From Vitiosangium sp. GDMCC 1.1324 (GTDB lineage Bacteria; Myxococcota; Myxococcia; Myxococcales; Myxococcaceae), in assembly GCF_003044305.1 (NCBI RefSeq), contig NZ_PZOX01000005.1:579493-643492 (forward strand): a stretch of 64,000 nucleotides of DNA. Direction: 5' to 3'. Shown one piece after another: positions 9,669 to 64,000 of the stretch (the first letter of the stretch is position 1; every line of letters begins with the position of its first letter). Both the position numbers and the translations under genes were made by a program. The notes under the pieces are model-generated. The model was not told where the DNA came from. It did not search any database and saw only the letters and a list, made by a program, of their open reading frames with translations.

Positions 9669-12600
9669 TCAGTCCTGCTCATCGGGTTTCGGGGTGGACG
9701 CGGGCGCTGGAGCGGATGTGCCCCCCTTGGGGCGGCGAAGCAACTCATTCTTCACCGCGTTCAGCTCAGCGTTGGCTCGAGCATAGATGTCCTGGACCGT
9801 ATCCGCGCCCTTGCGGGCGGACAGGCGCTTCGAGGCGGCCAGCTCAGCGTCCTGCCCTTCCAGGCGGCGCTTCTGCTCCGCCAGTGCCGCGTCGCGCTCG
9901 GACAGTGTGGCCTGGAGGGTGTCGACCTCCGTTTGCAACCGCTCCACCTCCTCGGACATCTCCAGGATGGCCTCGGAGTCCGAGACCGGCTTGCGCGATT
10001 GGAGATGCTCGACCTTCTCTCGCAGTGCGGCCCGCTCGGTCTCCAGGGCCTTGATGCGGGCGGTCAGCGCCTCGGCCGCCTGGGCCTGCTTCGTCTTCTC
10101 CGCGCGCTCGGCCTCGAGGAACTTCACCGCCTCGGCGGAGGCCGCCTCCAACGCCGTCACCCGGCCCTCCAGCCGGATGCGGGCCGCCCGGGCCACCGTG
10201 AGATCCGAGTTGAGCCGCTCGCGCTCGGAGACGAGCGTCCCCTTCTCCGCCTCGAGCCTCGCGAACTGCTCCTGCACCGCCTGCGTGGAGCTGTCCCGCT
10301 CCCGGACCCGCCGCTCCGCCTCTTCCGCCCGAGCCTCCAGCTCGGCCTGCTTCGCCTGCGTGGAAGCCTCGAGCTCCCGGGCGTGCCGCTCGGCCTCTTC
10401 CGCCTGGGCCTCCAGCTCCACCAGCTTCGCCTGAAGAGAGGCCTCGCGCTCCCGGGCCTGTTGCTCGGCCTCCTGCGCCTGGGTCTCCCGCTCCGACAGC
10501 TTCGCCTGAAGGGAGGCCTCGCGCTCCTGGGCTTGCTGCTCGGCCTCTTCCGCCTGGGCCTCCAGCTCCGACAGTTTCGTCTGAAGGGAGGCCTCGCGCT
10601 CCCGGGCGTGCCGCTCGGCCTCTTCCGCCTGGGCCTCCAGCCCGGCCTGGCTCGTCTTCGAGGCCTCCAGCTCGGCTCGGACTTCCGCGAGCCGGGACTC
10701 GAGCTCGCCCGCCGAACGCTCCGCCGTGGAGACGCGCTCCCGCTCCGCCTGGTGCTCCTCCCGCGCCTGGATCAGCTCGGCGCGAAGGGTCTCCAGGTCC
10801 TCGTGAGCAGTCTCCAGGCCTGTGCGCGCCTTCTCGAGCTCGGCCCGGGCGGACGCGAGTGCCTCACGCTCCTCCTGGAGGGCGGACTCGAGCGAGGGCG
10901 CCTTGCCCGCGATGCGCCGCGCCGATTCGAGCTGCACGGTGAGCAGCTCCATCTGCTCGTGCTCGGAGGCGAGCCGGGCCTGGGTCTCGGACAGCTCCTT
11001 CTGGAGGTGAGCGAGGTGCTGGTCCCTGTCCCGCAGCGCTCCGTGGGCCTGCTGGAGCGCCATGGAGGCCTGCTGCGCCTGAAAGCGAGCGGCATCCAAC
11101 TGCGCCACCTGGGCCCGCAGCGCCTCCAGCTCCTGGTCCTTCTTCCCGAGGTCCTCCCGGAGCCCCTCCAACTCGACCCGGGCCTCCACCGCGTCGCGCT
11201 TGCGAGCCTCGCGCTCGGCGGCACTGGACTCCTCGCGTGCCCGGGCCTCCGCGAGCCGGGCCTCGGTCTGCTCCACCTGCTCCCGCAGGGCCGTCTCGCG
11301 GGCCTGGGCATTGGCGGTCACCTCGGAGGACGTGCCGCGCTCCCACTCCAGGTTCGCCCGGAGCTCCTCGACGAGTCGCTTCTGCTCCGCCAGGGACTCG
11401 CCCAGCGCTGTCCCCTCTCGGCGGGCCGACTCCAGCTCCGTGCGCAGGGCCGAGGACTCCTCACGGGCCGCCTCCAGCGCCGAGAGCCGGGTCCGCTCGC
11501 GCTCGTCCGCGCCCGCCTGGGCGGACTCCAGATCGGCGCGCGCCTCGGCCAGGGACTGCTCCAGGGCCACACGTCCGGAGTGCTCGGACTCCAGCTCCCG
11601 CTGCGTCTCGGTGAGGGTGGACTCCGCCTCGGCCAGCGACGCCGCCAGCGCCGAGCGCTCCTGCCGCGTCTCCTCCAGCGCCGAGCGCAGCTCCTCGAGC
11701 CCGCGTTCCGCCTCGGCGCGCGCCTGCTGCTCGGCGTCGAGCCCGGCACGCACCTGGGACAGCAAGGCATCCGCGCTCTGGCTCTCCGCCGCGAACGAGG
11801 CCTCGGTCTCGGCCCGCTGCCGCCGCTCCGTATCGAGCTCTGCCCGGACGAGCGCCAAAGACTCCTCGGAACGCGTCCTGCTCTCGCGCTCCGCCTCCAG
11901 CTCATCTCGAACAGCCGCGAGCGACTCCTCGGAACGCGTCCTGCTCTCGCGCTCCGCCTCCAGCTCATCTCGAACAGCCGCGAGCGACTCCTCGGAACGC
12001 GTCCTACCCTCGCGCTCCGCTTCCAGCTCGTCTCGAACAGCCGCGAGCGACTCCTCGGAACGCGTCCTGCCCTCGCGCTCCGCCTCCAGCTCGTCTCGAA
12101 CAGCCGCGAGCGACTCCTCTGCCTCGGTGCGCTGCCGCCGCTCGGTATCGAGCTCGGTGCGCACCTGGACGAAGGACTCCTCCGAGGCCCCATGCGCCTG
12201 CCGTGCGGACTCCAGCGCGGACTCGAGCTGGGTGATCCGCTGCCGCTCGGCCTCGAGCGCCGCCCGGGCCCGCGTGAGGAGCTCGTCCGCCAGGGTCCGC
12301 TGCTGACGCTCCTCCTCGAGCTCGGAGCGGGTGCGAGCCCCCTCCTCGTTCGACTCGATGCGCAGCTGCCGCTCGGCCTCGAGCCCGGCACGGGTCCGCG
12401 AGAGCGAGTCCCGGGCCTCCTCCAGGAGCTGCCGCTCCGCCTCGAGCTCCGCCTGAGCCCGCGACACGGCCTCCTCCAGCCGCGCCCTGCCCTGCCGTTC
12501 GAGTTCGAGCTCGGCCAGGGCCTGCTCGCGCTCCTCGTCGGCCTTCGCCCGGGCCTGCTGCTCGGCCGCGATGGAGCCCTGGGTCGCCTTGAGTGCCGCA

Positions 12601-53581: not shown

Positions 53582-55228
53582 GTGTCCTCTACTCGCATGC
53601 GCTCCCATCCCCTGGCCTCGCAGCTCTCCCCGCTCCTCGCCCTCCTGATACTGAGTGGCTGTAACACCGCCTACCGGGAGGCCCTCTCCCAGGCCAAGGA
53701 GGCGGCCGCTCGCGGCGACTTCATGACCGCCGCCCGCGCCTACCGCTCGGCCTGCGCCGCCTCTCCCGATGACGAGGTGGCCTGTACGCGCGTCCCCATC
53801 TTCGCGGAGAAGGCGACGACCCAGGCCATCGCGGCCGCTCGCCCGCCGTGCGAATCGGGTGACCTCGACCGGTGCATCCCGCCCCTGCTCGACTCCCTGG
53901 ACCTCATCCCCCAGCACCCCGAGGCCACCGCGATGCTGGAGAAGGCCAGCCAGCTCCACACGGAGCGCTGCACCAGCAAGTGGAAGGCCGAGGGCTCGCT
54001 GAACACGGAGGTGGCCGGACTGGCCTGCCTGCAGTCCCGTGGCCACCAGTTCCGACTGCCGAGCTACCAGGCGCTCCTCTCCGAGCGCGCCACCCGGCTG
54101 GCCTCGCGCTTCGCCGAGCTCGCCACCACCGCGCGAAACAAGGGGACTCCGGGGGCCGCCGCCGTGCTGTGGTCCACCGCGCAGTGCCTCGCGCCGGACC
54201 CGGGCACCCTCGCGTGGAGCCAGCAGACCTACCAGGAGTTCCTCACCCAGAGCGCCATTCCCGTGGCCACCCGCCTTGACGGCTCGATCGCGCCCCAGGT
54301 CGCCTCGGGGCTCACCGGCCTGTGCCAGCGCCTGTCCTCGGGACTGCCTCCCTGGGCGCGGTGCGCGGAGGCCGGAACGGTGCCGGGCCAGCCGATGCCG
54401 CTTGAGCTCCAGGTGGACGCCATCATCCAGCGTGTCGTGGAGAACGTCAGCGAGGACCTGCGCAGCGTGAACTACATCAGTGGCACGCGGCGCGTGCGCA
54501 ACCCTGCCTACCACACGGCCGAGGAGCGCCTCGAGCACGCCGAGCGCTCGTACCGGAGGGCCGACAAGATGAGGAACTACAGGGACGAGGCGTGCGACAA
54601 GGAGAAGAAGACGCACGATGCGGGCTGCGTCGGGTGCACCGACCCCAACGACAAGAACAACAAGAATAAGAAGACCGCCTGCGACGAGGCCCGGGAGCTC
54701 CACGCGGCCTACGACAGCGCGGCGCAAGAGCTCGGCGCGGCGCGCACGAACCTGTCCAACACGCCCGAGTTCATGGTTGAGGAAGTGCACGACACGTTCA
54801 CCTACTCCGTGCTGACCCATCGCTGGTCGTCGGGCTTCCGCTTCACGCTCCAGACGAACACCCCGGGCGCTCCCGCTCCCGCGCCGCAACAGGGAGAGCT
54901 GCGCTTCCAGGACCAGGAGCATGTGGGCTTCAGCCCGGCTAAAATCCAGGCGGATCCGCTGGAGGTCCCGAACCCCTGGGCCTATTCGGATGCCTTCCTC
55001 CGGGAGCTGGCGCCCCACGTGTTCGCGGCGGTGCAGCAGGACGGCAGGGTCCGGGGCGCCCAGCGCCGCACCCAGTGCGCCGAGCTGCCGGCGAACTGGA
55101 GCACCCCCTGGGTGCAGTGCTGGGCCGAGGCCACGCTCTGGGAGGGCGGCCAGGAGCCCCAGCCGAATGGGTTCCTCCAGCTCCTGGCCAGCAACGCTGG
55201 CGCGTCCGAACAACCCATGTGCCGCTGA
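53582..55228 (+). CDS. secreted Cys-rich lipoprotein, hypothetical
   Basis: Lipobox LLILSGC (the start may be the MRSHPL ATG five codons in). At least 16 Cys. Lys/Asn-rich patch DKEKKTHDAGCVGCTDPNDKNNKNKKTACDE. Confidence 0.6.
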   Translation: MSSTRMRSHPLASQLSPLLALLILSGCNTAYREALSQAKEAAARGDFMTAARAYRSACAASPDDEVACTRVPIFAEKATTQAIAAARPPCESGDLDRCIPPLLDSLDLIPQHPEATAMLEKASQLHTERCTSKWKAEGSLNTEVAGLACLQSRGHQFRLPSYQALLSERATRLASRFAELATTARNKGTPGAAAVLWSTAQCLAPDPGTLAWSQQTYQEFLTQSAIPVATRLDGSIAPQVASGLTGLCQRLSSGLPPWARCAEAGTVPGQPMPLELQVDAIIQRVVENVSEDLRSVNYISGTRRVRNPAYHTAEERLEHAERSYRRADKMRNYRDEACDKEKKTHDAGCVGCTDPNDKNNKNKKTACDEARELHAAYDSAAQELGAARTNLSNTPEFMVEEVHDTFTYSVLTHRWSSGFRFTLQTNTPGAPAPAPQQGELRFQDQEHVGFSPAKIQADPLEVPNPWAYSDAFLRELAPHVFAAVQQDGRVRGAQRRTQCAELPANWSTPWVQCWAEATLWEGGQEPQPNGFLQLLASNAGASEQPMCR

Positions 55229-55250: not shown

Positions 55251-55799
55251 TCAGCCCGGCTCCAGCGCGCCGACCACCTCCGCCAGACAGTGCGGGCAGG
55301 CGGCACGTCCCTGAACCATGGACCTGCCGCACCCCGCGCACCGCACCATGCTAGGCAGGCGGCAGGCCCCGTCTTCCGGGGCACACTTCGGAACATCGGG
55401 GGCTCCGGCCTGCTCCAGGTCCCTCCGTACGACTTCGTCCTCCAGGTGCAGCCAGTCGGACAACCGGCGGCGGTTGTTGGAGAGCAGCTCGAAGGCGTTG
55501 CGCGCGAGCGGCATCAACGAGGGCCGGGACAACCGCTGTGCCCACGCCCGGTAGTCCTCCAGCGCCCACAGCACCATCAGCCACGCGTGGGTGTCCCGGT
55601 AGACGCCACCCTCGTCGTCCACCACCACGAGCTCCTCCGGGCCCGCCGAGCGGCGCAGCCCGGGAAAACGTCTCGCCGCCTCCTCGCTCCCAGCCGGGAG
55701 GCACTCGAGCCCCACCAGCGTGCGCTGCACCCCCAGCCACCGGGCACAGCCCACACAGAAGCCACACGTCTCGTCATACAGCACGCAGAGGGCACGCAT
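55251..55799 (-). CDS. thiol-disulfide oxidoreductase DCC-family (DUF393) protein
   Basis: MRALCVLYDETCGFCVGCARWL is the DCC motif. The ORF opens at 55811. Confidence 0.7.
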   Translation of the reverse strand: MRALCVLYDETCGFCVGCARWLGVQRTLVGLECLPAGSEEAARRFPGLRRSAGPEELVVVDDEGGVYRDTHAWLMVLWALEDYRAWAQRLSRPSLMPLARNAFELLSNNRRRLSDWLHLEDEVVRRDLEQAGAPDVPKCAPEDGACRLPSMVRCAGCGRSMVQGRAACPHCLAEVVGALEPG

Positions 55800-55807
55800 G
55801 GCTCGCC

Positions 55808-56266
55808 TCACACCCCCTCGGCCACAGGAGCCGGCTGCGGAGAAACCCGGGTGAACTCGCGCGGCAGCACGGGCGGCGGCTGCTGGCGCATCTGGCCCGA
55901 GCGGCGGATGCGATTGAAGACGTACAGGTTGAAGAAGTGCATCGCCCCCAGCACGACCATCACCTTGCCCACCTTGCCGCAGACCAGCTCGATGACCTCC
56001 TGCACCGTCCAGATGGTCTGGTACTCCTTGAGCGACAGGGCAACGTACCCGATGTTCATCAGGTAGAAGCCCACCACCAGCAGGTGGTTCACCGAATCCG
56101 CCAGCCGCTCCTTGCCCAGGAAGGCATCGTGCAGGAAGTGCGAGCCGTTGCGTTGCAGCGTCTTCGCCACCCAGATCGTCAGCGTGATGCTCACGAGCAG
56201 GTAGAGCAGGTAGGCAGCCACCATGAACTGGCTCGACACGGGGGTCACCAGCGCGTTGGGTTCCAT
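55808..56266 (-). CDS. small integral membrane protein
   Basis: 152 aa; four TM helices. Stop/start overlap with the downstream DCC gene. Confidence 0.55.
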   Translation of the reverse strand: MEPNALVTPVSSQFMVAAYLLYLLVSITLTIWVAKTLQRNGSHFLHDAFLGKERLADSVNHLLVVGFYLMNIGYVALSLKEYQTIWTVQEVIELVCGKVGKVMVVLGAMHFFNLYVFNRIRRSGQMRQQPPPVLPREFTRVSPQPAPVAEGV

Positions 56267-56421
56267 GACTCGTCTCCCTCGGAGAGCGCGGCCGCCCGGG
56301 GCTCCAGTGCCCCTCCTGGGTTGGCGCCGCCCTCCCCTTTCATCAGGGAGTACCGGAAGGAATTTTCGCGGTTGCGGGGTGCCCGCTCATTCACACGGCC
56401 CGGATGTAGGCAGGGTATCGG

Positions 56422-57096
56422 TCACATGCTCGCGGCTCGGAGCTTCGCGATCCACTCCCGGATTTCCTCATTGGTCCTCCGAGCCGCGACTCCCTCCTGG
56501 AACATCAGGAAGTCGAAACGACCTTCCACGATCATGCCCATCAGCGCCCGGTCGGCGGCGATGATCTCCGGCACCTCCCAGGGAAAGACGGGCCATGTAC
56601 CGCGATCCTCACTGAAATCGGGCATCTCGTAGATGAACTCCAGATAGCGGGCGTAGGTGTCGAAGAATCGGTCCACATTGGAGGCAATGGGGAGTGCGTA
56701 GATGTCTTCGTAGGGGTCGACCTTGACGACCGGTTGGAGGCCCTGTGCATCGGCCAGGCTCGGCACCGTGGCGTAGCAATAGGACGAGGCATCCCGGCAT
56801 CCAAAGATGAGAAGGGATCGGAAGGGCTCGGGCCAGTAGGGCTGAATCTCCTCGTTCGCCATGAGGATTCCATTCACCTGCTCATCACAGGGTTCCACAA
56901 GAAGATCGAAGTCGAGATAAAGCCCGCCCAGTCGCGAATAGAAGGTCGCCAGCATCGGGTCGAAGGGTCGGCCCAGGAGTCGCGTGCCCGCGGTTGGTGC
57001 ACCTTCCCAGGGTTTTCGAATCTCGGCTCGGATGGGGTACTTCCCGCAGGCTGCCAGCAGCCTCTCGAGTCCAGGCAATGACATTTCGTTCATCAT
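56422..57096 (-). CDS. candidate immunity protein B' (cytoplasmic, ~224 aa), paralogue of 58929..59603
   Basis: ATG-ATG at 57096/57093 (MMNEMSLPGLERLL...), 14 nt downstream of the A' stop. No signal peptide; acidic. About 89% identical to B, with substitutions clustered at aa 50-100. Loose SUKH/SMI1-like pattern (LP..L....G..P, FY.RLGG). Confidence 0.55.
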   Translation of the reverse strand: MMNEMSLPGLERLLAACGKYPIRAEIRKPWEGAPTAGTRLLGRPFDPMLATFYSRLGGLYLDFDLLVEPCDEQVNGILMANEEIQPYWPEPFRSLLIFGCRDASSYCYATVPSLADAQGLQPVVKVDPYEDIYALPIASNVDRFFDTYARYLEFIYEMPDFSEDRGTWPVFPWEVPEIIAADRALMGMIVEGRFDFLMFQEGVAARRTNEEIREWIAKLRAASM

Positions 57097-57110
57097 GCGC
57101 CTCTTTCGTC

Positions 57111-58805
57111 TCACCTCGCGACCAGGGCACGGACATCAGCCAGCGCCGCCGCTGTAGCCCTTTCGAGCAGAGCGTCTGACTGGCTCGGCTCGTAGACCTT
57201 GTTGAACCAACGCTCGAAGTGCCGCCGGGTGACGGCCGCTATCTGCTGAACCTGCTCGGGACTGGCCTTGTCGCCAGCCTCCATACGAAAGGCATTCCAC
57301 ACTCTGTTGATACCCTCATGAACGGGCTTTCCCAGTGCCTTGAGGTTGGCAGCAGCGTTGATGTCCAACTCGGGGAAGAGGTGGGCATACTCCAGGGGAA
57401 TGAGGTGGTGGACGTCGTATCGTCCCCAGGCGCCTCGAAGCACTCCATTCAGTTCAGGATAGAAGACCCCATAGAAATCGTCTTGAGCCTTGGCCCTGAG
57501 CGCATCCTTGGCCTTCTTGTCCAATTTGACGGTGAGCGACTGCTCCATGCGCCGCAGGAGTTGGGTGAGTTCGTTGCGCTCGGCGGCGGAGAGGCATTCG
57601 AAGCCCTCCGTCTCCACCTTCACGAAGAGCCGCCGCAACAGTTCCTGGTCCGCGCGCCCCGCCCGAACGAGTTGCGTGCGCAACCAGCGCATCCCCGCGG
57701 CGCCTCCCCGGGTCGCCACCCGCATCACCGAGGGCGCCACCGCTTCGAAGGCGACGTGCAGGCCCTTGCCCACCAGTCCCCCGATAACGCATAGGGCCAC
57801 CTGCTCCAAGGTGAAGGCGCCCGCCAGCTTCACCGAGTCCACCATCTCCTCACGGTAGTGGTGGAAGATTTGTGCGTGCAGCAGGCGGTACTCGCGCAGC
57901 ACGTCCTCTCCCGCTTCATCCACCGGCTCCGGCCGGAGCGTCTCCGCCCGCTCCACCCTCCAGTGGGAGGTGGCGCTCGTCCCTCCGTGCATCCCGGACA
58001 GTTCCAGCCGCACAGTGCGTGGGCCCAGTCCGCGCATGAAGGGCAACAGGGTCAGGGTGAGTGCCTCGGCCACCCGAGCGTCCGCTGGGCGCACCGTGCC
58101 ACCTCCAGCGGCGTGGTAGGGCCCCATCTCCCAGCCCGTGAGCCGGTCGTCCTCCAGCGAGAGCTCCACCCTCATGCGCGCCGAAGCACCCGCGGGCACC
58201 TGGAGCAGGCGCACCACCTGCTTCGCCATGGCCTGCACGGCGGAGAGCGCCCTGGACGAATAGCCCGTGCGCCGCGCTGGCAGCTTTCTCGCCTCCGGGG
58301 GCGCATCCATGGGGAGTGCCTCATAATCCACCCGCCAGCGGCTCTGCTCCCGGTGCAATGTGAAGCCGAGGGCACCTGTACGAGTCTCGGCGAGCGTGAA
58401 GAGCAACTCTCGCAGCCCGCCCGTGAACGCCTCCGCCTTCGTCGGCTGGCCCGCCTCTCCTCCAACCGCCCTCCGACGGACGGACAGCAGCGTGAGGGCC
58501 CCACGCTCGGCCCAGAAGGTGAACTCCAGTACCGAGCCCACCTGCCCCTCTCCGCTGGCCACTGCCCACATCTGCCCCAGCGCCCACTCGACCTCGGCCC
58601 TCCGAGCCCCGGCTTCCTCAACCCATTCGTCAGCGGATGGCGAGGCGCTCGGGTTCGCGGAGACGAGGGTGGCCTCGCTTGGAAACGACGCACTGGCCGG
58701 CAGGGCGAATCCTCTCCCGTTCTCGTGCTGTGTCGTGGCGCACCCCTGCACCATCAGCATCGCGAGCCCCACCGCCACGGCCCGCCAGCACGCCCTGCGC
58801 GTCAT
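57111..58805 (-). CDS. lipoprotein with C-terminal HNH/EndoVII-like nuclease domain (candidate polymorphic toxin A')
   Basis: 564 aa. MTRRACWRAVAVGLAMLMVQGC is a lipoprotein signal. Last ~130 aa: ...RYDVHHLIPLEYAHLFPELDINAAANLKALGKPVHEG... has HH, Asn and His spaced as in the HNH/EndoVII fold (AHH/GHH/SHH-type toxin nucleases). The N-terminal 427 aa are ~99% identical to the paralogue; the C-terminus ~77%. Confidence 0.65.
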   Translation of the reverse strand: MTRRACWRAVAVGLAMLMVQGCATTQHENGRGFALPASASFPSEATLVSANPSASPSADEWVEEAGARRAEVEWALGQMWAVASGEGQVGSVLEFTFWAERGALTLLSVRRRAVGGEAGQPTKAEAFTGGLRELLFTLAETRTGALGFTLHREQSRWRVDYEALPMDAPPEARKLPARRTGYSSRALSAVQAMAKQVVRLLQVPAGASARMRVELSLEDDRLTGWEMGPYHAAGGGTVRPADARVAEALTLTLLPFMRGLGPRTVRLELSGMHGGTSATSHWRVERAETLRPEPVDEAGEDVLREYRLLHAQIFHHYREEMVDSVKLAGAFTLEQVALCVIGGLVGKGLHVAFEAVAPSVMRVATRGGAAGMRWLRTQLVRAGRADQELLRRLFVKVETEGFECLSAAERNELTQLLRRMEQSLTVKLDKKAKDALRAKAQDDFYGVFYPELNGVLRGAWGRYDVHHLIPLEYAHLFPELDINAAANLKALGKPVHEGINRVWNAFRMEAGDKASPEQVQQIAAVTRRHFERWFNKVYEPSQSDALLERATAAALADVRALVAR

Positions 58806-58817
58806 CGAGGATTCCCT

Positions 58818-58898
58818 TCAGGGCTGCCAGCGCCACAGGTAGAGGCCGAACTCGAGCACCGGGGTGTCAGCATCAGGGCGAGCCTGACCTATATCACC
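58818..58898 (-). pseudogene. frameshifted 3' fragment of the Ser/Thr kinase gene carried along by the duplication
   Basis: Aligns to kinase codons for ...LMLTPPVLEFGLYLWRWQP* (61328..61403) with a 1-nt deletion (ggggtg vs ggcggcg) and substitutions. Lies between A' and B. Confidence 0.75.
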
Positions 58899-58928
58899 GG
58901 CTCGCGGGAGAGTTGGGCAGAGTATCCG

Positions 58929-59603
58929 TTACGTGCTCGCGGCCCGGAGCTTCGCGATCCACTCCCGGATTTCCTCGTTGACCCTCCGAGCCGCGACGCC
59001 CTCCTGGAACATCAGGAAGTCGAAACGACCTTCCACGATCATGCCCATCAGCGCCCGGTCAGCGGCGATGATCTCCGGCACCCCCCAGGGAAAGGTGGGC
59101 CATGTACCGCGATCCTCAGAGAAATCGGGCATCTCGTAGATGAACTCCAGATAGCGGGCGTAGGTGTCGAAGAAGCGGTCCACATTGGAGGCAACGGGGA
59201 GTGCGTAGATGTCTTCGTAGGGGTCGACCTCGACGACCGGTTGGAAGCCCTGTGCATCCGCCAGGCTCGGAACCGTGGCGTAGCAATAGGCTGACGCCTC
59301 TTCGCCCCCGAAGACGAGAAGCGACCGGAAGGGCTCGGGCCAGTAGGGCTGAACCTCCTCGTTCGCCATGAGGATGCCATTCACCTGTTCATCACAAGCA
59401 TTGACATAGAGGTTGAGGTCGAGCAGGAGCCCACCCAGTCGTGAATAGAAGGCGGCCAGCATCGGGTCAAAGGGTCGGCCCAGGAGTAGCGCGCCCGCGG
59501 TTGGTGCACCTTCCCAGGGTTTTCGAATCTCGGCTCGGACGGGGTACTTCCCGCAGGCCGCCAGCAGCCGCTCGAGTCCAGGCAATGAGATTTCTTTCAT
59601 CAT
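58929..59603 (-). CDS. candidate immunity protein B (cytoplasmic, ~224 aa)
   Basis: ATG-ATG at 59603/59600 (MMKEISLPGLERLL...), 15 nt after the A stop and preceded by gagggaagag. The ORF extension to 59717 is rejected because it overlaps A. Confidence 0.55.
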   Translation of the reverse strand: MMKEISLPGLERLLAACGKYPVRAEIRKPWEGAPTAGALLLGRPFDPMLAAFYSRLGGLLLDLNLYVNACDEQVNGILMANEEVQPYWPEPFRSLLVFGGEEASAYCYATVPSLADAQGFQPVVEVDPYEDIYALPVASNVDRFFDTYARYLEFIYEMPDFSEDRGTWPTFPWGVPEIIAADRALMGMIVEGRFDFLMFQEGVAARRVNEEIREWIAKLRAAST

Positions 59604-59617
59604 GTGTCTCTTCCCTC

Positions 59618-61315
59618 TCACCTTACAACCAGGGCACTGACATCCTCCAGCGCCGCCGCCGTGACCCTTTCGAGCAGAGCGTCTGACTGGCTCGGCTCGT
59701 AGAGTTTGTTGAACCAACGCCCGAAATGTCGCTGGGTGATGTCCACCATCTGTCGAACCTGTTCGGGACTGGCCGTGTCACCCGCTTCCTTGCGGAAGGC
59801 ATTCCATATCTTGTTGATACTCCCATGAACGGGCTTGCCTAAGGCCTTGAGGTTGGCGGCAGCGTTGATGTCCAACTGCGGAAACAGGTGGGCATACTCC
59901 AGGGGGACAAGGTGATGGACGTCGTATTGTTTTCCCTCAACGTCCCTCAATACCCTCTCCAGCTCGGGATGGAAGGCCCCGTAGAAATCAGCTTTAGCCT
60001 TGGCACGAAGCGCGTTCTTGGCATCACGGTCCAATTTGACGGTGAGCGACTGCTCCATGCGCCGCAGGAGTTGGGTGAGTTCGTTGCGCTCGGCGGCGGA
60101 GAGGCATTCGAAGCCCTCCGTCTCCACCTTCACGAAGAGCCGCCGCAACAGTTCCTGATCCGCGCGCCCCGCCCGGACGAGTTGTGTGCGCAACCAGCGC
60201 ATCCCCGCGGCGCCTCCCCGGGTTGCCACCCGCATCACCGAGGGCGCCACCGCTTCGAAGGCGACGTGCAGGCCCTTGCCCACCAGTCCCCCGATAACGC
60301 ATAGGGCCACCTGCTCCAAGGTGAAGGCGCCCGCCAGCTTCACCGAGTCCACCATCTCCTCACGGTAGTGGTGGAAGATTTGTGCGTGCAGCAGGCGGTA
60401 CTCGCGCAGCACGTCCTCCACTGCTTCGTCCACCGGCTCCGGCCGGAGCGTCTCCGCCCGCTCCACCCTCCAGTGGGAGGTGGTGCTCGTCCCTCCGTGC
60501 ATCCCGGACAGTTCCAGCCGCACAGTGCGTGGGCCCAGTCCGCGCATGAAGGGCAACAGGGTCAGGGTGAGTGCCTCGGCCACCCGAGCGTCCGCTGGGC
60601 GCACCGTGCCACCTCCAGCGGCGTGGTAGGGCCCCATCTCCCAGCCCGTGAGCCGGTCGTCCTCCAGCGAGAGCTCCACCCTCATGCGCGCCGAAGCACC
60701 CGCGGGCACCTGGAGCAGGCGCACCACCTGCTTCGCCATGGCCTGCACGGCGGAGAGCGCCCTGGACGAATAGCCCGTGCGCCGCGCCGGCAGCTTTCTC
60801 GTCTCCGGGGGCGCATCCATGGGGAGCGCCTCATAATCCACCCGCCAGCGGCTCTGCTCCCGGTGCAATGTGAAGCCGAGGGCACCTGTACGAGTCTCGG
60901 CGAGCGTGAAGAGCAACTCTCGCAGCCCGCCCGTGAACGCCTCCGCCTTCGTCGGCTGGCCCACCTCTCCTCCAACCGCCCTCCGACGGACGGACAGCAG
61001 CGTGAGGGCCCCACGCTCGGCCCAGAAGGTGAACTCCAGTACCGAGCCCACCTGCCCCTCTCCGCTGGCCACTGCCCACATCTGCCCCAGCGCCCACTCG
61101 ACCTCGGCCCTCCGAGCCCCGGCTTCCTCAACCCATTCGTCAGCGGATGGCGAGGCGCTCGGGTTCGCGGAGACGAGGGTGGCCTCGCTTGGAAACGACG
61201 CACTGGCCGGCAGGGCGAATCCTCTCCCGTTCTCGTGCTGTGTCGTGGCGCACCCCTGCACCATCAGCATCGCGAGCCCCACCGCCACGGCCCGCCAGCA
61301 CGCCCTGCGCGTCAT
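59618..61315 (-). CDS. lipoprotein with C-terminal HNH/EndoVII-like nuclease domain (candidate polymorphic toxin A)
   Basis: 565 aa. ATG at 61315 is 12 nt after the kinase stop, with an aagggaa RBS. The C-terminal domain ...QYDVHHLVPLEYAHLFPQLDINAAANLKALGKPVHGS... retains the HH / N / H residues but differs from A' at ~30 of 134 positions plus one indel. Coding GC is lower over 59620..60030. Confidence 0.65.
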   Translation of the reverse strand: MTRRACWRAVAVGLAMLMVQGCATTQHENGRGFALPASASFPSEATLVSANPSASPSADEWVEEAGARRAEVEWALGQMWAVASGEGQVGSVLEFTFWAERGALTLLSVRRRAVGGEVGQPTKAEAFTGGLRELLFTLAETRTGALGFTLHREQSRWRVDYEALPMDAPPETRKLPARRTGYSSRALSAVQAMAKQVVRLLQVPAGASARMRVELSLEDDRLTGWEMGPYHAAGGGTVRPADARVAEALTLTLLPFMRGLGPRTVRLELSGMHGGTSTTSHWRVERAETLRPEPVDEAVEDVLREYRLLHAQIFHHYREEMVDSVKLAGAFTLEQVALCVIGGLVGKGLHVAFEAVAPSVMRVATRGGAAGMRWLRTQLVRAGRADQELLRRLFVKVETEGFECLSAAERNELTQLLRRMEQSLTVKLDRDAKNALRAKAKADFYGAFHPELERVLRDVEGKQYDVHHLVPLEYAHLFPQLDINAAANLKALGKPVHGSINKIWNAFRKEAGDTASPEQVRQMVDITQRHFGRWFNKLYEPSQSDALLERVTAAALEDVSALVVR

Positions 61316-61327
61316 CGAGGATTCCCT

Positions 61328-62773
61328 TCAGGGTTGCCAGCGCCACAGGTAGAGGCCGAACTCAAGCACCGGCGGCGTCAGCATCAGAACGAGTCCGGCC
61401 CACACCACCGGCTCGCGGGAGAGTGGACGCTGGCGCCGCCACGCCTCCAGGGTCGAGACGCACAGAAGGTAGAGCGCCGACAGCTCCAGCAGCCCTCCCA
61501 CCAGCGGCATGAAGGGAGGCATCGAGATGCCCGCGCCCCACTCCAGCACGCCTCGCAGGGCGAACAGGCCCGAGCAGGCAATCGTCACCCCCAGGAAGGA
61601 CCGGCCCTCGTGCAGCGGCACCTCCGGCGCGGGCGCATCCAGTCCCTCGTGGCGCCAGTGTCTGCGCAACAAGCCATACGCCGCCAACGCCACCGCGAGC
61701 CCCGCCACCGCGCCGAGGATGGGGCCCGTCTCGAAGCGCGCCCGTGTCACCCACCGGCCATCCGCCAGTCTCGCCGCGGGCTGCATGGTGAGGGGATCCA
61801 ACTCGTGCGGGGCCAGCACCCGCGGCGTCACCGACACGACGAGCGCCCACAGCACCAGTGCGCACGCCACCGCCTGCAACACCGCCACCGCCCTCAGCCA
61901 GATGGCCTCGTCCGGAGGCAGGGCCGCCTCCGCCGCTCCGTCCGCGAGCCGCCGCAGGTCCAGGCCCAGTGCCTGCGCGCTCGCGTAGCGCCGTGACGGT
62001 TCGAGCGCCACCGCCCTGCGCACCATCGTCCCGAGCGCCCCCGTCAACGCGGGCGCCCCCGCCACCGGTGGCCGGCCCGTCACCATCTCGTGCAGCAGCA
62101 CCCCCACCGCGTACACGTCCATGCGCGGGTCCGGCGGCGCTCCGGCGAGGGCCTCGGGAGCCATGTACTCAGGCGTCCCCACCACCGCGTGCGCGGCGGT
62201 GAGCGTGTCTCTCGGCCCCTCCTGCCGGACGATGCGGGCAATCCCGAAGTCCGTCACCTTCACCCGGCCCTCTCCGTCCATCAGGATGTTGGCCGGCTTG
62301 ATGTCCCGATGCACCACGCCTCGCGCATGCGCGTAGGCCAGCGCGTCGCACACCTGGAGCGCCACGCGCACGGCCTCCGCCGGAGGCAACGGCAGTACCT
62401 GTGCCAGGGAGCGGCCCTCCACCAGCTCCATCACCAGGAAGCGCTCGCCCTCCTCGTCACCAAAGTCGTGCACCCGGACGATGTTCGGATGATCCAACAG
62501 TGCCAGGGCCCTCGCCTCCCGCGCGAAGCGGGCCTGCGCCTCGGCGCTCGAGGCGGCCTCCCCCGCGAGGAACTTCACCGCCACCGGCCGATCCAACCGC
62601 ACATGGCGCGCCCGGAAGACACGGCCCATGCCTCCCCGGCCGATCTCCTCCTCCAGCTCCAGCGAGCCGATGCGCCCCGGATCCTCCATGTCCTCTCCCA
62701 GGAGGCAGCCGGGACATACCGCCAGGCGCTGGCCATCCACGGGCGTTCCGCAGCGCGAGCAGCGGGCACTCAT
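61328..62773 (-). CDS. Ser/Thr protein kinase with N-terminal CxxC zinc-ribbon and C-terminal multi-TM region
   Basis: 481 aa. CSRCGTPV...CPGC; kinase subdomains GRGGMGRVFRA, VAVKFL, HRDIKPANIL, DFGIA, GTPEYMAPE. Four C-terminal hydrophobic helices. Its ATG overlaps the ECF sigma stop (ATGA). Confidence 0.9.
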   Translation of the reverse strand: MSARCSRCGTPVDGQRLAVCPGCLLGEDMEDPGRIGSLELEEEIGRGGMGRVFRARHVRLDRPVAVKFLAGEAASSAEAQARFAREARALALLDHPNIVRVHDFGDEEGERFLVMELVEGRSLAQVLPLPPAEAVRVALQVCDALAYAHARGVVHRDIKPANILMDGEGRVKVTDFGIARIVRQEGPRDTLTAAHAVVGTPEYMAPEALAGAPPDPRMDVYAVGVLLHEMVTGRPPVAGAPALTGALGTMVRRAVALEPSRRYASAQALGLDLRRLADGAAEAALPPDEAIWLRAVAVLQAVACALVLWALVVSVTPRVLAPHELDPLTMQPAARLADGRWVTRARFETGPILGAVAGLAVALAAYGLLRRHWRHEGLDAPAPEVPLHEGRSFLGVTIACSGLFALRGVLEWGAGISMPPFMPLVGGLLELSALYLLCVSTLEAWRRQRPLSREPVVWAGLVLMLTPPVLEFGLYLWRWQP

Positions 62774-63492
62774 CGCTTCAGCACCCGGAGCAGCTCGGCG
62801 AGCTCGGCCTCCGCCTCCTCCGGCCCTCCCACCGTGTCCGCCACTTCCTCGCGCACCAGCTCGCGGTAGCGCACCCGCGCCCGGTGCAGGAACGTCTTGA
62901 GCTGCGGCAGGGACATGCCGTGTGCCTCCGCCGCCTCCCGGTAGCTCGGCGGCTCACCCGGGCGGAAGAACTGGAGCACCAGGTCGAAGGGGCCCTTGCG
63001 CGCTCCACTGTCGTACTCGGCCTTCAGCCGCTCCAGGGCGCGCTCCATGACGCTCGAGGCCCATTCCCGCTCGAAGGCCTCGTCCGGGCCCTGGGCATCC
63101 TCGGAGGCAATCCGCTCCGCCAGCTCGAAGTCCAACGGCAGGGCCACCACGCCCCCTCCGCGCCGCGCGGCACTCTCCCGCTCGTAACGGTGGGCGAGGT
63201 GGTTGCGCGCGGCCGTCAGCAGGTAGCCCCGCAACCGGCCCTTCTCGGGGCTCAGCCGCTCGAGGAAGTCGTGCTCCAACAGCCGCACCAGCAAATCCTG
63301 CACGGCGTCGCGCGCGGGCTCCGCGTCCAGCCCCTGGCGGCGCATGAAGACGTAGAGAGGGCGCCAGTAGGTGCTCAGCAACGACTCGAGTGCCGCGCGG
63401 CGGGCCTCCGGCGATACCCGCGCCGAGCGGATGAGGGTCCAGCGCGTGGGTGGAAAGGAGCCCGGTCCTTCCTCTCGCGGATCTGCGCTCAT
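62770..63492 (-). CDS. ECF (group 4) RNA polymerase sigma factor
   Basis: ATG at 63492 (MSADPREEGPGSFPPTRWTLIRSA...). The ORF to 63642 is rejected. Sigma-70 region 2 (...LESLLSTYWRPLYVFMRRQGLDAEPARDAVQDLLVRLL...) and region 4 (...SYREAAEAHGMSLPQLKTFLHRARVRYRELV). Confidence 0.85.
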   Translation of the reverse strand: MSADPREEGPGSFPPTRWTLIRSARVSPEARRAALESLLSTYWRPLYVFMRRQGLDAEPARDAVQDLLVRLLEHDFLERLSPEKGRLRGYLLTAARNHLAHRYERESAARRGGGVVALPLDFELAERIASEDAQGPDEAFEREWASSVMERALERLKAEYDSGARKGPFDLVLQFFRPGEPPSYREAAEAHGMSLPQLKTFLHRARVRYRELVREEVADTVGGPEEAEAELAELLRVLKR

Positions 63493-63726
63493 GGAAGAGG
63501 TTCTAGCGCAAACAGGGGGAGTCCTTCCCGGGGGGCGGGCACCTGACCTCCAGTGCACATCTACTCCGGGCTCTGCTCGCTGCCGGACACGGCTCCTCCG
63601 CCCGCCGAAGCGGCGCATCCGTTTCACTGGAGGAAAAGGCACCAGCGCATTGCCCGGACACCTTCCGCTCTCTAGCTTCCCGCACCCGAAGCCACACCCC
63701 CAGTCGCAGTCACGCGAGGACGAACC

Positions 63727-64000
63727 ATGACCCCTGCCTCTCAGATGAGCATGCCGATGCAGCCCGGAATGAACCCGATGATGGGCGGCATGCCCATGAT
63801 GGGTATGAACCCGATGATGGGCATGAATCAGATGCCGATGATGGGCATGAACCCGATGATGGGCGGCATGCCCATGCCCATGCCCATGATGGGCGGCATG
63901 CCCATGCCGATGATGGGCATGAACCCGATGATGGGCGGCATGCCCATGCCGATGATGGGCATGAACCCGATGATGGGCGGCATGCCCATGATGATGCCCA
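63727..64000 (+). CDS. Met/Gly/Pro-rich repeat protein, 5' part (continues beyond window)
   Basis: ATG at 63727, 8 nt after gagga. MTPASQMSMPMQPGMNPMMGGMPMMGMNPMMGMNQMPMMGMNPMMGGMPMPMP... Strongly G/C-ending codons on the plus strand. The antisense His-rich frame has T-ending codons, so the plus frame is preferred. Absent from the ORF track because no stop lies inside the window. Confidence 0.6.
   Translation, partial: MTPASQMSMPMQPGMNPMMGGMPMMGMNPMMGMNQMPMMGMNPMMGGMPMPMPMMGGMPMPMMGMNPMMGGMPMPMMGMNPMMGGMPMMMP

Follow-up and report, generated by a model that had tools for sequence, protein, structure and literature searches.

The 64-kb window of Vitiosangium sp. GDMCC 1.1324 (the whole stretch of DNA that was analysed, about 70% G+C, to which all coordinates refer) carries on its minus strand a gene for an extracytoplasmic function (ECF) sigma factor, a gene for a membrane-bound Hanks-type Ser/Thr kinase and, directly behind them, an array of two putative lipoprotein toxins and two candidate immunity genes, here called A, B, A' and B'. 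The reading that we prefer, with a probability of about 0.6, is that the sigma factor and the kinase are a kinase-controlled ECF sigma module and that the toxin cassette is an insertion, probably riding on the sigma-kinase transcript. The kinase would sense a cue in the membrane or envelope with its five-helix domain and activate the sigma factor by phosphorylation, and the activated sigma factor would direct RNA polymerase to the sequence GCAACC-N13-CCGGTA, from which X152, a small protein of the membrane, and a DCC1-like thiol-disulfide oxidoreductase would be expressed. Originally this promoter would have begun 10-20 nt past the kinase stop codon, with X152 and the DCC1-like gene behind it, and the sigma and kinase genes themselves would be transcribed from a leaderless promoter of the sigma-70 type. 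A cassette resembling the SitA/SitI toxins of myxobacteria would then have entered, in this genome as in some of Archangium, the short stretch that separates the kinase stop from the -35 element, and a later duplication here would have copied it along with 110 nt from the 3' end of the kinase gene. The toxin genes would form a 3' extension of the sigma-kinase transcript, expressed alongside the module and not switched on by it.

Pairing of the sigma factor with a membrane kinase

Every protein of the window was compared with 80 related loci from a scan of one genome per species. The sigma factor and the kinase are paired in 76 of these loci, with the kinase gene directly downstream in 59 and within 3.5 kb upstream in 17, and the kinase is missing from the other four, two of which are cut by contig ends. 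The paired loci span Myxococcota, Planctomycetota, Acidobacteriota and Verrucomicrobiota, and in the first three of these phyla the kinases align over their full length, from the Zn-ribbon to the fifth helix, with 43-94% identity. In the window the sigma stop codon TGA (62772..62770) overlaps the kinase ATG (62773..62771) as ATGA, and the borders of the genes agree with a preliminary description of the locus. Family searches found no anti-sigma domain (e.g. zf-HC2/RsrA-like or RskA) in any neighbouring product, and in X152 only 14 residues precede the first helix, which leaves no space for a classical anti-sigma domain. Judged by this gene order, the notion that sigma factor and kinase are a true functional pair is supported, and the preliminary description was right to see a sigma factor paired with a kinase and lacking a classical anti-sigma factor. 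It also called the pair an unconventional sigma-control module, which is apt relative to control by anti-sigma factors, but kinase-linked ECF sigma factors are an established class (PMC8999054, PMC7826278, PMC13147305).

The kinase is a complete Hanks kinase (Pkinase 7.6e-54, PknB 6.8e-48) in which the G-loop and the VAVK, HRDIKPAN, DFG and APE motifs are all present, and PknB is the closest among the solved structures. The N-terminal Zn-ribbon, which had been recognised from the start, is a CxxC-11-CxxC knuckle of about 20 aa and not a helical anti-sigma domain, and its four Cys residues are nearly invariant in 33 homologues. The membrane tail was at first taken to have four helices, but hydropathy and an AlphaFold model (m9ce39e006509, confidence score pLDDT ~90 in this part) both give five, at residues 287-315, 349-376, 388-414, 422-446 and 455-478. 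This five-helix tail is found in just 131 clusters of 1.84 billion, and it is C-terminal in every full-length match (~440-540 aa); the shorter matches look like fragments.

The sigma factor is of the ECF type, with a Sigma70_r2 match of 1.2e-6, a weak Sigma70_r4_2 match and no domains other than sigma2 and sigma4 (group 4); against the ECF superfamily model TIGR02937 it scores 43.3 bits, just above the cut-off of 42.9. We place its start at ATG 63492 and not at the longer GTG 63642, because the ~120 homologues among the matches listed are all roughly 230-250 aa long. An invariant N-terminal motif, F-P-x-T-R-W-T (aa 13-19), is common to the family from Myxococcota through Verrucomicrobiota, and the most conserved Thr residues of the family are those in this motif. 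Region 2.2 reads P59-A60-R61-D62 where canonical ECF sigma factors have D-A-E-D, and the family consensus is A-A-(Q/R/K)-D, so that of three acidic positions two, the first Asp and the Glu, are gone, and the last, Asp/Glu, is nearly invariant. The register of this region was checked against the solved ECF sigma factors 5uxx and 2q1z; the matches of the sigma profile to solved structures are weak (E at least 0.011) and served solely for this register.

ECF43 and several further ECF groups have been defined by their kinase linkage (PMC7826278). In EcfP-PknT of Vibrio parahaemolyticus (Iyer et al. 2020, as cited in PMC8999054) and EcfK-PknS of Xanthomonas citri (PMC13147305) the kinase phosphorylates a Thr replacing the DAED patch, which restores binding to the beta' subunit of RNA polymerase (PMC8999054, PMC13147305, PMC8103513). 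The locus in the window resembles these systems in having an ECF sigma gene beside the gene of a membrane Hanks kinase and no anti-sigma factor, and a kinase whose catalytic domain lies in the cytoplasm, with a sensor part in the membrane behind it. The DAED patch, the beta' contact of region 2.2, is likewise partly degraded, and its loss of acidic residues parallels the phosphorylation-dependent EcfP and EcfK (PMC8999054, PMC13147305). As in the ECF43 type, moreover, the sigma gene is apparently not driven by its own target promoter, which fits control after translation.

The ECF43 consensus, QTTA/STTA, has at its third position a conserved Thr that is the phospho-acceptor and is present in 88% of the members (PMC8999054, PMC13147305), whereas this position is never Thr or Ser among 64 aligned homologues of our sigma factor (it is Q, R, K, A, G or E, and Arg61 in the window), and the last Asp of the patch is kept. 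Since the acceptor position is never Ser/Thr and this Asp is retained, the sigma factor is filed, on its sequence, under the broad kinase-associated ECF class and not under ECF43. The F-P-x-T-R-W-T motif is a further feature that sets the family apart from the ECF43 type. Kinases of that type have one helix and a large periplasmic domain, in PknS with tetratricopeptide repeats, whereas the kinase in the window combines an N-terminal Zn-ribbon with a compact five-helix domain; and the targets of the ECF43 type are type VI secretion or polymyxin-resistance genes, whereas the targets predicted for the present family are a small membrane protein and a DCC1-like oxidoreductase. By description, our family is like ECF59, 61, 62, 217, 267 and 283 (the former ECFSTK1-4 of Planctomycetes), which are linked to kinases, lack an anti-sigma factor and keep part of a DAED-like motif (PMC7826278, PMC8999054) and which also have members in Planctomycetota and Verrucomicrobiota. 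None of these groups has been experimentally characterised (PMC7826278, PMC8999054).

Table 1. Features of the sigma-kinase locus and the toxin array in the 64-kb window
Feature	Position	Strand	Remarks
Candidate sigma-70-type -10-like hexamer TAGAAC	63500..63505	-	7 nt upstream of sigma ATG
ECF sigma gene	62770..63492	-	240 aa, ATG 63492 to TGA 62770
Hanks kinase gene	61328..62773	-	481 aa
Kinase Zn-ribbon	62705..62761	-	C5, C8, C20, C23
Hanks Ser/Thr kinase domain	61919..62659	-	~aa 39-285, all catalytic motifs
C-terminal membrane domain of kinase	61340..61915	-	five transmembrane helices, ~30-aa beta-hairpin outer loop
Putative toxin A	59618..61315	-	lipoprotein, 565 aa
Immunity candidate B	58929..59603	-	224 aa
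Kinase 3' remnant	58806..58915	-	last ~110 nt of kinase gene; duplicated along with the A-B unit, precedes A'
Putative toxin A'	57111..58805	-	564 aa
Immunity candidate B'	56422..57096	-	224 aa
Candidate ECF-type promoter GCAACC-N13-CCGGTA	56351..56375	-	downstream of toxin array, ~85 nt upstream of X152
X152 gene	55808..56266	-	152 aa, three hydrophobic helices
DCC1-like oxidoreductase gene	55251..55811	-	thiol-disulfide oxidoreductase type, CGFC motif

Conserved downstream genes and predicted promoters

The unit that is conserved at these loci consists of the sigma factor, the kinase, X152 and the DCC1-like oxidoreductase, and this gene order recurs widely. Locus L001, for instance, has the sigma factor, the kinase, a 149-aa protein and a DCC1-like protein, and no toxin genes. 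Among the 38 loci with a full-length kinase and enough downstream sequence, X152 follows the kinase in 27 and the DCC1-like gene in 26. The preliminary description let a tightly packed co-directional unit run from the sigma gene to B'; packing and strand hold, but the unit does not end there and continues into X152 and the DCC1-like gene. Family searches gave no assignment for X152. The DCC1-like protein matches Pfam PF04134 (2.5e-10), and its gene start overlaps or abuts the X152 stop. Its C-terminal Cys-rich tail (55251..55360, minus strand; CAGCGRSMVQGRAACPHC) weakly matches a zinc ribbon of the rubredoxin-like kind (PF12172, E 0.0037), and the homologue in L001, which is shorter (152 aa), does not have it.

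Upstream of X152 about 30 loci of several phyla share a bipartite motif of ECF-promoter form, GCAACC-N13-CCGGTA, which keeps its position and has the variants CTGTA and CCGGAA. In loci without an insertion its -35 element begins 10-20 nt past the kinase stop codon. A weight matrix built from 21 non-redundant sites finds one strong site on both strands of the window, with 27.6 bits at 56351..56375, and the next best reaches 14.4. We infer from this conservation that the motif is the predicted target of the sigma factor. The second-best site (55529..55553, plus strand; ACAACCGCTGTGCCCACGCCCGGTA) is antisense inside the DCC1-like gene and probably a chance match. Further copies of the motif occur in L011 (13508, plus strand), L037 (2983, plus) and L038 (7632, plus), and they may mark additional members of the regulon. 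One extra copy precedes an open reading frame (ORF) resembling NAD-dependent epimerases or short-chain dehydrogenases/reductases, just past DCC1 in Cystobacter fuscus, and another stands right after the kinase and before a B12/radical-SAM-like ORF in a locus without X152; both ORFs were annotated by reading the sequence. The ~85-nt leader of X152 (56267..56350, minus strand) is almost invariant in the Archangium loci and contains several GC-rich hairpins, but a search of Rfam gave nothing, and in stability its fold does not clearly surpass shuffled sequences (z = -1.5), and the relatives are too close for covariation.

The sigma and kinase genes appear not to be autoregulated. With the family matrix and a variable spacer, the mean best score upstream of the sigma gene is 3.8 bits over 33 loci, against 2.9 in random segments and 14-29 at true sites, and the generic pattern AAC-N15-18-CGT/GTC/GTA finds nothing in the sigma upstream region, the kinase 3' end or the B-A' spacer. 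An autoregulatory sigma promoter was rejected, as both searches are blank upstream of the sigma gene, and the shared ECF-type -35/-10 that the preliminary description proposed to look for is likewise found upstream of neither sigma, A nor A'. What does stand before the sigma ATG is the motif GCTAGAAC, which all close loci have kept, L001 and L011 with their different upstream context included. Of 31 diverse orthologous loci, 19 have a TAnnnT hexamer 6-10 nt ahead of the sigma start codon, compared with 0.9% of random positions, and this suggests that TAGAAC is a candidate housekeeping-type promoter of a leaderless sigma-kinase(-toxin) transcript. A scan of 55-64 kb with the sigma-70 promoter consensus gave no matches. 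The leaderless signature fits a sigma factor that is made constitutively and controlled after translation.

On the other side of the sigma gene a divergent gene (63727..64000, plus strand) runs past the window end and encodes a highly repetitive Met/Pro/Gly-rich protein (MTPASQMSMPMQPGMNPMMGGMPMMGMNPMMG...) with a composition like that of Met-rich metal-binding proteins. Its start adjoins the sigma gene in the close Archangium loci and is apparently conserved there except in L001 and L011.

The SitA/SitI-like array at a variable junction

Toxin A has a lipobox (LMVQG-C22, with C22 nearly invariant), a disordered linker (residues 17-55, pLDDT < 50), a conserved N-terminal domain (~430 aa) and, at the C-terminus, a variable domain (~135 aa). 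The last of these holds an HH...N...H motif whose residues H467, H468, N484 and H497 are invariant and lie in a predicted beta-beta-alpha element; a nuclease domain in this part was confirmed by neither profile nor fold search. Between A and A' the identity is 99% in aa 1-428 and ~75% in the C-terminal domain (aa 429-565), and B and B' are 89% identical. A' has the very sequence of a protein recorded for Vitiosangium sp. GDMCC 1.1324. The immunity candidate B has no family match, and homologues of the toxin number only ~76, all of them in Cystobacterineae.

This anatomy is close to that of SitA/SitI, the polymorphic lipoprotein toxins of myxobacteria that are delivered by outer membrane exchange (PMC5562445, PMC8546572). 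Many SitA toxins end in a nuclease domain of the AHH/HNH type, and their transfer from cell to cell depends on TraA/TraB. The lipobox and the disordered linker are shared, and so is the pattern of a conserved N-terminal domain (~400 aa) with a polymorphic C-terminal domain. The motif in the latter is HNH/AHH-like; Pfam AHH (PF14412) is unmatched in the toxin of the window. A candidate immunity gene follows each toxin immediately, 14 nt after A and after A', and the pair is kept in L082-L084; also SitA/SitI-like are the restriction to myxobacteria (here Cystobacterineae), the mobile and variable loci and the orphan immunity genes. The resemblance is one of architecture; for the SitA toxins six escort-domain families have been defined. 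We regard A-B-A'-B' as a SitA/SitI-like array of putative toxins and candidate immunity genes. A placement of SitA cassettes in a sigma-kinase operon is not described in PMC5562445 or PMC8546572.

The array is a tandem repeat (56409..58915 and 58916..61424, period ~2510 nt) with its left end inside the kinase gene. The identity between the two units is a mosaic, namely 83% in the kinase remnant, 96-100% in the first 1.3 kb of the toxin gene, 66-89% in the toxin C-terminal domain and 82-97% in the immunity gene, which suggests recombination or conversion and not simple divergence. The G+C content at third codon positions is 0.87-0.92 in sigma, kinase, X152 and DCC1 and 0.85 in the toxin N-terminal domain, and it falls to 0.69-0.70 in the toxin C-terminal domain and 0.74-0.76 in the immunity genes (segments 56422..57521 and 58929..60031). 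These low values point to a separate, foreign origin of the modules of toxin tip and immunity gene. A lipoprotein gene convergent with the DCC1-like gene (53582..55228, plus strand, 548 aa) gives a weak match to TraC, an accessory lipoprotein of outer membrane exchange (NF040658, E 1.3e-17, 63.7 bits against a cut-off of 500), and has no homologue in 81 related loci. A TraC-like gene near SitA-like toxins may merit attention.

The junction between the kinase stop and the X152 promoter is variable among close relatives, which we compared at loci with 88-95% identical sigma factors. It is empty in L001, L003, L006, L009 and L011, holds one immunity gene only in L002, a truncated toxin with an immunity gene in L007, one toxin with one or two immunity genes in L004, L005, L008, L012 and L043, and other DNA in L010 and L047. 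More distant loci (L014, L018, L031, L032) have 0.4-5.5 kb of unrelated sequence at the same place, and all inserted DNA has the kinase stop on one side and the X152 promoter on the other. At this junction the unrelated DNA measures from 0.4 to more than 7.5 kb, for example at 11166..18720 in L047, 11166..13800 in L010, 8420..13890 in L032 and 11130..13000 in L014. The junction looks like a general insertion hot spot. The surroundings of three homologous toxin/immunity pairs were examined (L082-L084, in Melittangium boletus, Myxococcus sp. AM011 and one further contig), and there the pair stands between housekeeping genes with no sigma factor or kinase nearby. As far as comparative genomics goes, the toxin array is a strain-variable insertion and not a demonstrated target of the sigma factor.

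Expression of the toxins and the wider meaning of the locus

The distance of 12 nt between the kinase stop (61330..61328) and the ATG of A (61315) was correctly noted in the preliminary description, and the spacer, AGGGAATCCTCG, is Shine-Dalgarno-like. The other spacers are 14 nt (A-B), 123 nt (B-A'), 14 nt (A'-B') and 155 nt (B'-X152). A scan of 55-64 kb found no terminator-like site between sigma and B'; the two matches in this region are both within coding sequence and are fewer than in shuffled sequences. An internal terminator between the kinase and A, which the preliminary description had named as evidence against a common unit, was not seen, and there is no room for one. Because the spacer has only 12 nt and neither a terminator nor a detectable promoter precedes the array, the toxins are most likely on the sigma-kinase transcript.

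The preliminary description went further and suggested that toxin expression is under envelope or kin-signal control, i.e. that the toxin and immunity genes belong to the regulon of this sigma factor and are switched on by the kinase. The co-directional genes, the narrow gap and the missing terminator agree with this, and if the sigma factor induced the transcript of its own gene and the kinase gene, the toxins would follow. There is also a precedent, as EcfK/PknS controls the type VI secretion system, an antagonism system, in Xanthomonas citri (PMC13147305, PMC8999054), and the cassette recurs at the same junction in several Archangium genomes. The family promoter motif, however, is on the downstream side of the array and precedes neither sigma, A nor A', and what the sigma gene has is a -10 box of the sigma-70 kind. 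Equally close relatives are without the cassette, so that the linkage is not conserved, the cassette stands in unrelated contexts in the three other genomes examined, and the unrelated DNA in L010, L032 and L047 is better explained by an insertion hot spot than by functional coupling. The suggestion thus finds no support in our comparison, and we consider it improbable. To the same degree doubtful is the alternative that the toxins have a promoter of their own within the ~110 nt at the 3' end of the kinase gene, in which case their proximity to sigma and kinase would have no regulatory meaning. It could account for the kinase 3' sequence being kept before A' (110 nt, 83% identical), where the 26 nt next to the A' ATG (58806..58831) differ from the kinase-A junction at only one base, and sitAI-type cassettes elsewhere must bring or find promoters, the gaps upstream of A in L082-L084 being 100-345 nt. 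Yet no sigma-70-like or ECF-like promoter match occurs in 61316..61800 or 58806..58935, and the kinase 3' end was not brought in with the cassette, because genomes without the cassette have the same sequence. The remnant is most simply a product of a tandem duplication with its left end inside the kinase gene. That it travels with the cassette was rejected, as no trace of it lies beside the cassettes in L082-L084.

Far less probable still is that the kinase is unrelated to the sigma factor and only a chance neighbour, e.g. a stand-alone anti-phage defence kinase of the PD-T4-6 kind or a general signalling kinase. Hanks kinases are very numerous in myxobacteria, and the kinase domain has strong matches to the PADLOC models PD-T4-6 and MAD6 (7.7e-83), but four phyla keep the pairing with the sigma factor, in which the stop and start codons often overlap, and the five-helix tail is always C-terminal on a kinase-length protein in the full-length matches. 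The PD-T4-6 matches were rejected as a sign of a defence kinase, as they cover only the generic catalytic domain (aa 36-240).

Several points weigh against a kinase-controlled module with a passively expressed cassette. The sigma factor has no Thr at the position that is phosphorylated in EcfP and EcfK, and a phospho-switch, if any, must sit elsewhere; docking or sequestration could equally apply. About 30% of the loci with a full-length kinase have no X152 or DCC1 within 9 kb, the hexamer TAGAAC of the window lacks the final T, and the promoter, the transcription start sites and the co-transcription are all predictions. A more speculative version, which we think rather unlikely, is that the family has a kinase switch other than that of ECF43, in which the kinase docks via its invariant Zn-ribbon and phosphorylates T16/T19 of the invariant T-R-W-T and not region 2.2, which would free an otherwise inactive sigma factor for a small thiol/membrane regulon of X152 and DCC1, and that the gap of 10-20 nt before the target promoter is a recurrent landing site in Archangiaceae where kin-discrimination toxins come to be expressed by joining a leaderless transcript of housekeeping type.

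Experimental work on kinase-controlled ECF sigma factors covers few cases, all of them proteobacterial, and the locus offers a testable system in this class. The sigma factor and the kinase form a compact and well-defined family over at least four phyla, with a predicted promoter and a two-gene core regulon, and the architecture of the kinase, a Zn-ribbon and five helices, is unusual. As the sigma factor is without the phospho-acceptor that is known from ECF43, the family can test how general the ECF43 mechanism is. For specialists the family-wide promoter, the core regulon, the kinase architecture, the signs of a leaderless transcript and the role of the junction as a landing site are useful yet unsurprising. 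The locus is also a caution that tight, operon-like packing beside a regulator is no proof of regulation by that regulator, and it has some modest bearing on the question how cassettes of polymorphic toxins spread and acquire expression via an operon junction that in relatives hosts other cargo as well.

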